DNA from: a virus
Taxonomy: Duplodnaviria; Heunggongvirae; Uroviricota; Caudoviricetes
Strand: one strand, 5' to 3'
Virus record (IMG/VR): IMGVR_UViG_2568526722_000002
Location: 1 to 54,562 of that record
Length of the DNA: 54,562 bases
The notes beneath the pieces are model-generated. The model was given only the letters and a program-made list of their open reading frames with translations. It was not told the DNA's origin and searched no databases. How positions within the stretch are numbered: position 1 is the stretch's first letter; the number at the start of each line of letters is the position of its first letter. The position numbers and the translations under genes are program-made. Below are positions 46,760 to 46,864 of this stretch, piece by piece.

Positions 46760-46864
46760 ATGTCTATAAAGCAAGCTCTCAATAACGCTTATAAAATCAT
46801 TGTAAATCAAAAATTTGGTAATAAAGAACAGCAGCACTCGCCGAAAGGATTTAACCAGCAGTAA
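46760..46864 (+). CDS. unannotated 34-codon ORF downstream of the 434-aa gene
   Basis: Not in the ORF track; ATG at 46760 preceded by AAGGAG at 5-nt spacing; encodes MSIKQALNNAYKIIVNQKFGNKEQQHSPKGFNQQ; terminator follows. Confidence 0.35.
   Translation: MSIKQALNNAYKIIVNQKFGNKEQQHSPKGFNQQ

Follow-up and report, generated by a model that had tools for sequence, protein, structure and literature searches.

A 34-codon partner gene behind a proteasome-like enzyme gene in a mobile cassette of an E. coli prophage

The window analysed here is the whole of IMG/VR virus record IMGVR_UViG_2568526722_000002, a stretch of 54,562 nucleotides (nt). We examined a 34-codon open reading frame (ORF) located on its + strand, directly behind a gene for a protein of 434 amino acids (aa). 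This ORF is a protein-coding gene under purifying selection, and it is very likely a real gene encoding the cognate partner of the 434-aa protein. The latter is, judging from its modelled fold, a proteasome-like enzyme. Enzyme gene, small gene and terminator form a self-contained mobile cassette, a mobile enzyme and small-partner cassette, here with a proteasome-fold enzyme. Bacteria and archaea carry the pair on prophages, phage satellites, plasmids and chromosomes. The overall explanation that fits best, and a probable one in our view, is that of a translated, dedicated small partner of the 434-aa enzyme, carried on a mobile cassette and acting by a mechanism of the inhibitor type, which we infer.

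The small gene, its signals and its conservation

The small partner gene (46760..46864, + strand) consists of 34 sense codons and a TAA stop at 46862-46864. Its ATG at 46760 falls on the 18th base past the stop of the large gene (TAA 46740-46742), and the Shine-Dalgarno sequence (SD) AAGGAG is read directly at 46748-46753 on the + strand, with a 6-nt spacer to the start codon. A preliminary description of the window had given this AAGGAG, the ATG at 46760, the 18-nt gap and the 34 codons, all of which were found again base for base. The duplex energy with the anti-SD is -9.3 kcal/mol for the small gene versus -4.4 for the large gene, and in 12 of 14 loci the SD of the small gene was stronger than that of the large one. 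The translated product is MSIKQALNNAYKIIVNQKFGNKEQQHSPKGFNQQ. It had been described as basic and hydrophilic, in agreement with its isoelectric point of 10.0 and its grand average of hydropathy (GRAVY) of -1.10. In an AlphaFold2 (AF2) model, residues 3-18 form a helix with a predicted local distance difference test score (pLDDT) of about 83, and the tail has a score of about 52. We predict that the small protein is made of an amphipathic helix (3-18, its conserved part) and a variable, disordered tail of polar and basic residues.

The cassette ends with an intrinsic terminator (46867..46896, + strand), three bases past the stop of the small ORF. This is composed of an A-tract (A6, 46867-46872), the stem CCCGGC/GCCGGG (46873-46878/46885-46890) with a 6-nt loop, and a T-tract (T6, 46891-46896). 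A simple terminator scan missed it, and it is clear from the fold: the computed energy is -18.9 kcal/mol (z = -5.6), and none of 200 shuffles was as stable. The strong terminator announced after the small ORF is therefore present. Given its A-tract and T-tract, it could potentially act in both directions. Loci of Klebsiella, Serratia, Pantoea and Tatumella have the same stem, ACCCGGC...GCCGGGTTTT, 3' of their small ORF.

Taken by itself, such an ORF is only mildly improbable: in mononucleotide shuffles of the 1.57-kb cassette, an SD, an ATG and an ORF of at least 34 codons on the same strand occurred in 2.7% of cases. Gene status thus had to be decided by comparison among loci. The closer sample comprised 13 loci in which the large protein is 42-100% identical to that of the window (42-80% in Klebsiella, Serratia, Citrobacter, Pantoea, Tatumella, Rahnella and metagenomic contigs). 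Looking for a syntenic small ORF beside homologues of the large gene had been proposed as a check, and it proved positive. A homologous ORF of 34-37 codons lies behind the large gene in all 13 closer loci, starting 11-29 nt past its stop (or overlapping it, in Citrobacter), and each one has a GGAG-type SD 5-9 nt before its ATG and a terminator after it. The exact E. coli peptide is encoded directly behind the large gene in 10 of 10 distinct places.

The consensus of these small proteins is MSxxQxxxNAYKxIxxxKFG, with M1, A10, Y11 and F19 invariant in the alignment. Conserved positions include the hydrophobic residues 3, 6/7, 10/11 and 14/15. Conservation ends sharply at F19-G20, and the tail that follows is variable, with many Q, N, S, T and K residues. 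Comparison of the window with a relative whose large protein is 80% identical (locus L084) gave, over the first 20 codons, proportions of synonymous (pS) and non-synonymous (pN) differences of 0.95 and 0.05 respectively, so that synonymous sites are saturated. Pooled over all pairs, pN/pS for the same codons was 0.41. Across 12 loci, the frame of the small ORF contains no stop, as compared to 19-44 stops in each of the other five frames. Small and large proteins diverge together, the small one faster (82, 56, 56, 36 and 32% identity, versus 80, 70, 68, 49 and 46% for the large one). Amino acids kept while synonymous sites are saturated, a frame open in all 12 loci, and the retention of SD and ATG establish the ORF as a gene.

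In Citrobacter freundii AP026940, the large gene is called with 447 aa, and the small ORF (L091 3323-3427), MTPQQMLENAYKILAQQKFGGQSPSSSTPVYQNN, begins 22 nt ahead of that called stop. This is either a true gene overlap or a C-terminal extension of the large gene resulting from a frameshift.

The small ORF had been introduced as unlisted, which holds in part. RefSeq annotation by the Prokaryotic Genome Annotation Pipeline (PGAP) lacks it in 13 near-identical E. coli genomes. The exact peptide is nonetheless already deposited as a "hypothetical" or "uncharacterized" protein (e.g. ELF09959.1, UniRef A0A377BHT8), and it was called as a gene in more than 2000 blocks of an assembly collection. The small gene is an example of a gene systematically dropped by RefSeq annotation.

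The proteasome-like enzyme and its partners in the wider family

The large gene (45438..46742, + strand) encodes a predicted proteasome-beta-like N-terminal nucleophile (Ntn) hydrolase with two helical insertions, similar to the group named PMI-4. Scans with Pfam, NCBIfam and PADLOC models returned nothing usable for either the large or the small protein, the large one having no Pfam hit at E <= 1. When the profile of the large family was compared to PDB, proteasome beta was the top match, yet with E = 0.6, over a GGxIDVAVI motif, and the PDB library searched contained no solved structure of the family. As no profile match is significant, the assignment rests on the fold and on active-site residues. 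The AF2 model has a confident fold without the partner, with the alpha-beta-beta-alpha sandwich of 20S beta subunits, and it resembles proteasome beta subunits more closely than connectase.

In the alignment of the large family, the N-terminus M1-T2-A-E-I is invariant. The proteasome catalytic set is Thr1/Asp17/Lys33/Gly47 (PMC8665760). T2 and D18, both invariant, are Thr1 and Asp17 once Met1 is removed, and G48, a consensus residue within HHPVG, matches Gly47. Both K37 and K30 are invariant and are candidates for Lys33, the equivalent lysine not being settled by superposition. According to the model, the large protein is a proteasome-fold enzyme with its catalytic residues in place. In every member Thr1 comes directly after Met1, and the enzyme has therefore no propeptide in cis.

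Two extra sets of long helices are seen in the model, at about 101-218, after helices H1/H2 (62-73 and 81-94), and at about 325-368, between H3 and H4. No helical insertion is found among the early strands (4-53). Insertions at these two sites define the PMI proteasome homologues (Fuchs, Alva & Lupas 2021, Bioinformatics 37:4694; PMC8665760). PMI-4, whose function was unknown in 2021, is the largest and most widespread variant and occurs across many bacterial phyla as well as in archaea and phages. The same authors argued that the PMI insertions could prevent ring and double-ring assembly (PMC8665760). The large protein resembles PMI-4 by its proteasome-beta fold, its Thr1/Asp17/Lys33/Gly47 set, its insertions after H1/H2 and between H3/H4, and its broad spread, a likeness that concerns the insertion sites as published for the group represented by HDY66466.1. 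The family is large, with 6150 clusters at E <= 0.001 among the candidates. Natural fusions of enzyme and partner were looked for, and the members longer than 440 aa that were inspected all turned out to be N-terminal mis-starts or frame overlaps.

The annotated length of the large protein varies among E. coli copies. The A-tract at 45385-45390 has six A residues in the window (A6) and seven (A7) in NZ_CP151050 and most RefSeq copies. The A7 allele puts an upstream ATG at 45340 in frame, so that the large gene is called as 466 or 467 aa (467 by PGAP). With the A6 allele it is called as 434 aa, as in 3 of the 10 places with the exact peptide. As shown by the MTAEI N-terminus common to the family, both alleles truly start at 45438, and all longer database versions of the large protein are upstream mis-starts. 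The A-tract also sits in the spacer of a promoter-like site, TTGAAA-16-TAATAT (45382-45409), where A7 would give a 17-nt spacer, and the A6/A7 difference could represent slipped-strand variation of expression.

We also analysed a distant sample of 80 loci, with one genome per species and a large protein 30-38% identical to that of the window, including Nitrospirota, Planctomycetota, Bacteroidota, Firmicutes, Cyanobacteria, Chloroflexota, methanogens and ANME. Overall, of 92 bacterial, archaeal and phage loci, 90 have a small ORF of 27-78 codons abutting the stop of the large gene, and in distant loci it frequently overlaps this stop by 3-19 nt. An SD followed by an ORF of at least 45 codons was found behind the large gene in 54 of 78 distant loci, versus 3.4 expected from shuffles and 3 of 74 at a control position. 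The link between small gene and enzyme gene is obligate. Conservation extends to no other neighbour: 141 flanking ORFs matched 146 Pfam families, none of them in more than two loci. The two genes form a self-contained module.

Many of the long-form partners (50-78 aa) share the motif Y-R/H-S-x-x-E-F-E-K-K-F-F-P ... L-G-x-x-L-A-x-E-S-L, and a Pfam scan of the long forms gave no match. A hidden Markov model (HMM) built from 15 of them recovered 31 held-out members and no decoy, and upon iteration it converged on 41 of 95. The Bacteroidota partners (L030, L036, L040, L053, L054, L062) constitute a class of their own, of 70-77 aa, directly downstream of the large gene, with the sequence ...SNKDVLSAFK...QGMSxKEISEIVSEKIIxVVKEQFE... 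The long-form HMM does not retrieve them, and they have no SD, as expected in that phylum.

In some genomes, the small gene behind the homologue is already annotated as a coding sequence. This is the case in Providencia phage PSTRCR_117lys (58 aa), in a Porphyromonas phage (55 aa) and in Stenotrophomonas phages BUCT708/709 (41 aa, MSLANHMKKLRVLANQKRF...). In the Streptococcus satellite phage Javan421 (L101 3713-3880), an unannotated 55-codon ORF with GGAGG and a terminator follows the proteasome-like gene, and a RelB/RelE pair is found 1.7 kb beyond it.

The peptide as a database hypothetical protein and the catalogued enzyme family are already known. What appears to be new, as far as we searched, is the pairing of a proteasome homologue with a small downstream gene, and its context in prophage slots. 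The words operon, neighbour and small protein are absent from the main text of the 2021 catalogue (PMC8665760), and a literature search for a characterised proteasome-like or Ntn defence system retrieved only this catalogue, and no functional study. A near-universal, presumably co-translated small gene, which is the sole conserved neighbour and, in enterobacterial prophages, sits with the enzyme gene in the classic superinfection-exclusion and moron slots, provides a first concrete handle on PMI-type enzymes. The pairing turns an orphan and very widespread enzyme family, with thousands of members, into a directly testable two-component system. With 434 aa and 34 aa and its own terminator, the E. 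coli pair is the smallest example, which makes it an easy system for genetics and biochemistry.

Possible roles of the small protein

The preliminary description had proposed a partner, a regulator or a substrate of the 434-aa protein. Synteny supports a partner, which may be an inhibitor, a substrate or a subunit. Within this frame, we tentatively favour a propeptide acting in trans, or pseudo-substrate inhibitor, although we give it somewhat less than an even chance. The helix of the peptide would dock on the enzyme, with the tail in or near the Thr1 active-site cleft. The stronger SD of the small gene leads us to expect the peptide in amounts at least equal to those of the enzyme. It would keep an otherwise constitutively active Thr hydrolase silent in the lysogen. 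If the peptide is labile, its loss, e.g. upon infection or shut-off of host expression, would free the hydrolase, and the result would be an antitoxin-like or abortive-infection-like module placed in the prophage slot of rexAB. Physical binding, inhibition, toxicity and an anti-phage role of the pair are, in this scheme, all putative.

Two types of known systems resemble this arrangement. In proteasome beta subunits, propeptides cover and protect Thr1 until activity is due, and here a small co-expressed protein always accompanies an enzyme devoid of propeptide. The beta propeptides, however, act in cis and are removed autocatalytically, whereas the small protein comes from a separate downstream gene, so that the analogy concerns the proposed mechanism only. 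The second type is that of toxin-first type II toxin-antitoxin (TA) or abortive infection (Abi) pairs, also made of two co-oriented genes, with a small second gene that has the stronger ribosome-binding site and encodes a helix with a disordered tail. Like TA and Abi morons of prophages, the module is carried on prophages, satellites and plasmids, in repressor-pL or Q-lysis slots, and HicAB is found in the same slot of another E. coli Rac-like prophage. Unlike such pairs, neither protein matches TA or defence models, and the small one has no DNA-binding domain. The distribution of the module is circumstantial evidence that fits a role in defence, exclusion or addiction. The cassette toxicity or defence to which the preliminary description alluded would also fit this genomic context. 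Should the module serve in defence or addiction, prokaryotic immunity would gain a threonine-protease effector of proteasome fold.

Several observations weigh against the explanation as a whole. Neither protein matches PADLOC models, and most type II antitoxins have a DNA-binding domain, which a 34-aa helix lacks. Among the 141 neighbours in distant loci, only scattered restriction-modification or candidate-defence hits were found. Conservation is confined to the helix up to KFG, the tail being free to vary. This is compatible with a docking helix, and equally well with a recognition element followed by a leaving group, as in a substrate. Homology between short and long partners was not demonstrated either: the hhalign probability is 0.5%, the short-form HMM recovers short forms only, and the iterated long-form HMM never captures them. 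The partner is therefore universal in a positional sense, with turnover of its sequence. Likenesses between short and long forms noticed by eye (KFG and KFFP, the MS-x-K-Q start in Enterobacter, NQKRF in a Stenotrophomonas phage) received no support from profiles.

The main rival, though an unlikely one in our estimation, is that the peptide is the dedicated substrate of the enzyme, which would recognise the helix and cleave at or after KFG, RFP or FFP, releasing an active fragment or ligating the fragment to another protein through an acyl-enzyme, as connectase does. A substrate would account at least as well as an inhibitor for two features, the abrupt end of conservation at F19-G20 and the Pro kept in the long forms. 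Connectase (MJ0548 family), with its MtrA recognition peptide (PMC7980362), is comparable to the pair: each has a proteasome homologue possibly acting on a single specific peptide, and each peptide bears a short conserved motif with Pro or Gly. Connectase nevertheless lacks H1/H2 and is defined by a two-helix insertion between S3 and S4 (PMC8665760), whereas the large protein keeps H1/H2 and has no such insertion, and its structure is the nearer to proteasome beta subunits. In addition, the peptide is hydrophilic and has no evident effector property, and the resemblance of KFG to FFP is one of those lacking profile support.

A purely structural, assembly or activating role, without any inhibition, seems quite improbable. 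The peptide would then be required for the folding, oligomerisation or gating of the enzyme, in the manner of the Ump1/PAC chaperones or HbYX-type activators of proteasomes. The tight gene coupling, frequent overlap and near-universal linkage are those expected for members of one complex, and the partner co-diverges with the enzyme. Many short forms also have a semi-conserved aromatic residue 3-4 residues from the C-terminus (GF-NQQ, SY-NQQ, VF-KK). This residue is not penultimate, however, hence there is no HbYX motif, and AF2 folds the enzyme confidently alone. Above all, the sequence of the partner turns over fully between lineages (at least three unrelated-looking classes), whereas the enzyme core can still be aligned at 30-38% identity. 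Complete turnover would be unusual in a core structural subunit, which makes this explanation less attractive.

A peptide-processing device for immunity or addiction seems to us very unlikely: after cleavage at KFG or FFP, the helix would be either transferred to a target by connectase-like transpeptidation or released as a signal or effector. If true, helix transfer would represent a new prokaryotic protein-tagging system. The module is common to bacteria, archaea, phages and phage satellites.

Finally, that the ORF arose by chance or belongs to a non-coding element (3' untranslated region, terminator leader or small RNA) can be considered extremely improbable: AT-rich DNA does yield short ORFs, PGAP makes no call here, and an Rfam scan gave a weak match to AgrB (46818-46898), but this match, like the others of the scan, is below threshold (27 bits, E = 0.14, for a gathering score of 40) and extends over the terminator hairpin, and synteny, purifying selection with saturated synonymous sites, a single open frame in 12 loci, and SD and ATG present everywhere led us to reject the chance ORF that the preliminary description had envisaged.

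Three more specific identities were considered and discarded. A Pup-like tag was set aside for want of a conserved C-terminal GGQ or GGE, the C-termini being NQQ, NQK, NEQ, FKK, QKN, DSK and QNN. A membrane-active type I toxin does not agree with a hydrophilic peptide (GRAVY -1.1), nor an HbYX activator with an aromatic residue that is not penultimate.

The cassette in its prophage and in other mobile elements

The host element is a Rac-like lambdoid prophage adjoining tonB/yciI. Thirteen complete E. coli chromosomes match the segment 45300-47100 with 99.8-99.9% identity. Genes are arranged in the order YdaT, YdaS/Cro-like, helix-turn-helix (HTH) repressor, 434 aa, 34 aa, KilR, YdaE, RecE and RecT, and on the other side come the O/P replication genes, Q, and the lysis, head and contractile-tail genes. 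The cI-like HTH repressor gene (44911..45297, + strand; Pfam HTH_3 at 1e-6) is directly upstream of the cassette. The low-GC cargo cassette itself (45300..46866, + strand) extends from the repressor gene to the pL-side terminator, with a GC content of about 29-37%, versus about 50-58% in its flanks. In λ, rexAB is carried at the equivalent slot, and the cassette is likened to it by position.

Two other E. coli prophages match the window only from 46867 onward, which places the small ORF inside exchangeable cargo, 3 nt from its right-hand boundary. The slot between repressor and terminator is a cargo hotspot, and alternative cargo was found there in two loci (L002 2191-4006, L003 1765-3995): a second HTH gene with YoaK, HicA/HicB and a 141-aa hypothetical protein, or else two hypothetical genes.

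The module occupies the repressor-pL/N slot in prophages of E. coli, Klebsiella and Tatumella, and in Serratia, Citrobacter, Enterobacter and a Providencia phage it is found between Q and the holin. Lambdoid phages classically carry cargo at these two positions. Further copies of the module lie close to the ends of Streptococcus satellites, where RelBE is a neighbour, and on plasmids of rhizobia, Pantoea and Enterococcus.

The only promoter candidate for the cassette is a 9/12 match at 45382-45409, and a search upstream of the large gene in other loci revealed no consistent promoter. Transcription by read-through from the repressor gene is equally possible. Downstream, a second terminator-like hairpin with a T-run is located at 46946-46975, 50 nt past the first terminator. 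It is followed by a strong promoter-like site, TTGACA-18-TAATAT (47038-47067), presumably the pL equivalent driving kilR, ydaE and recE.
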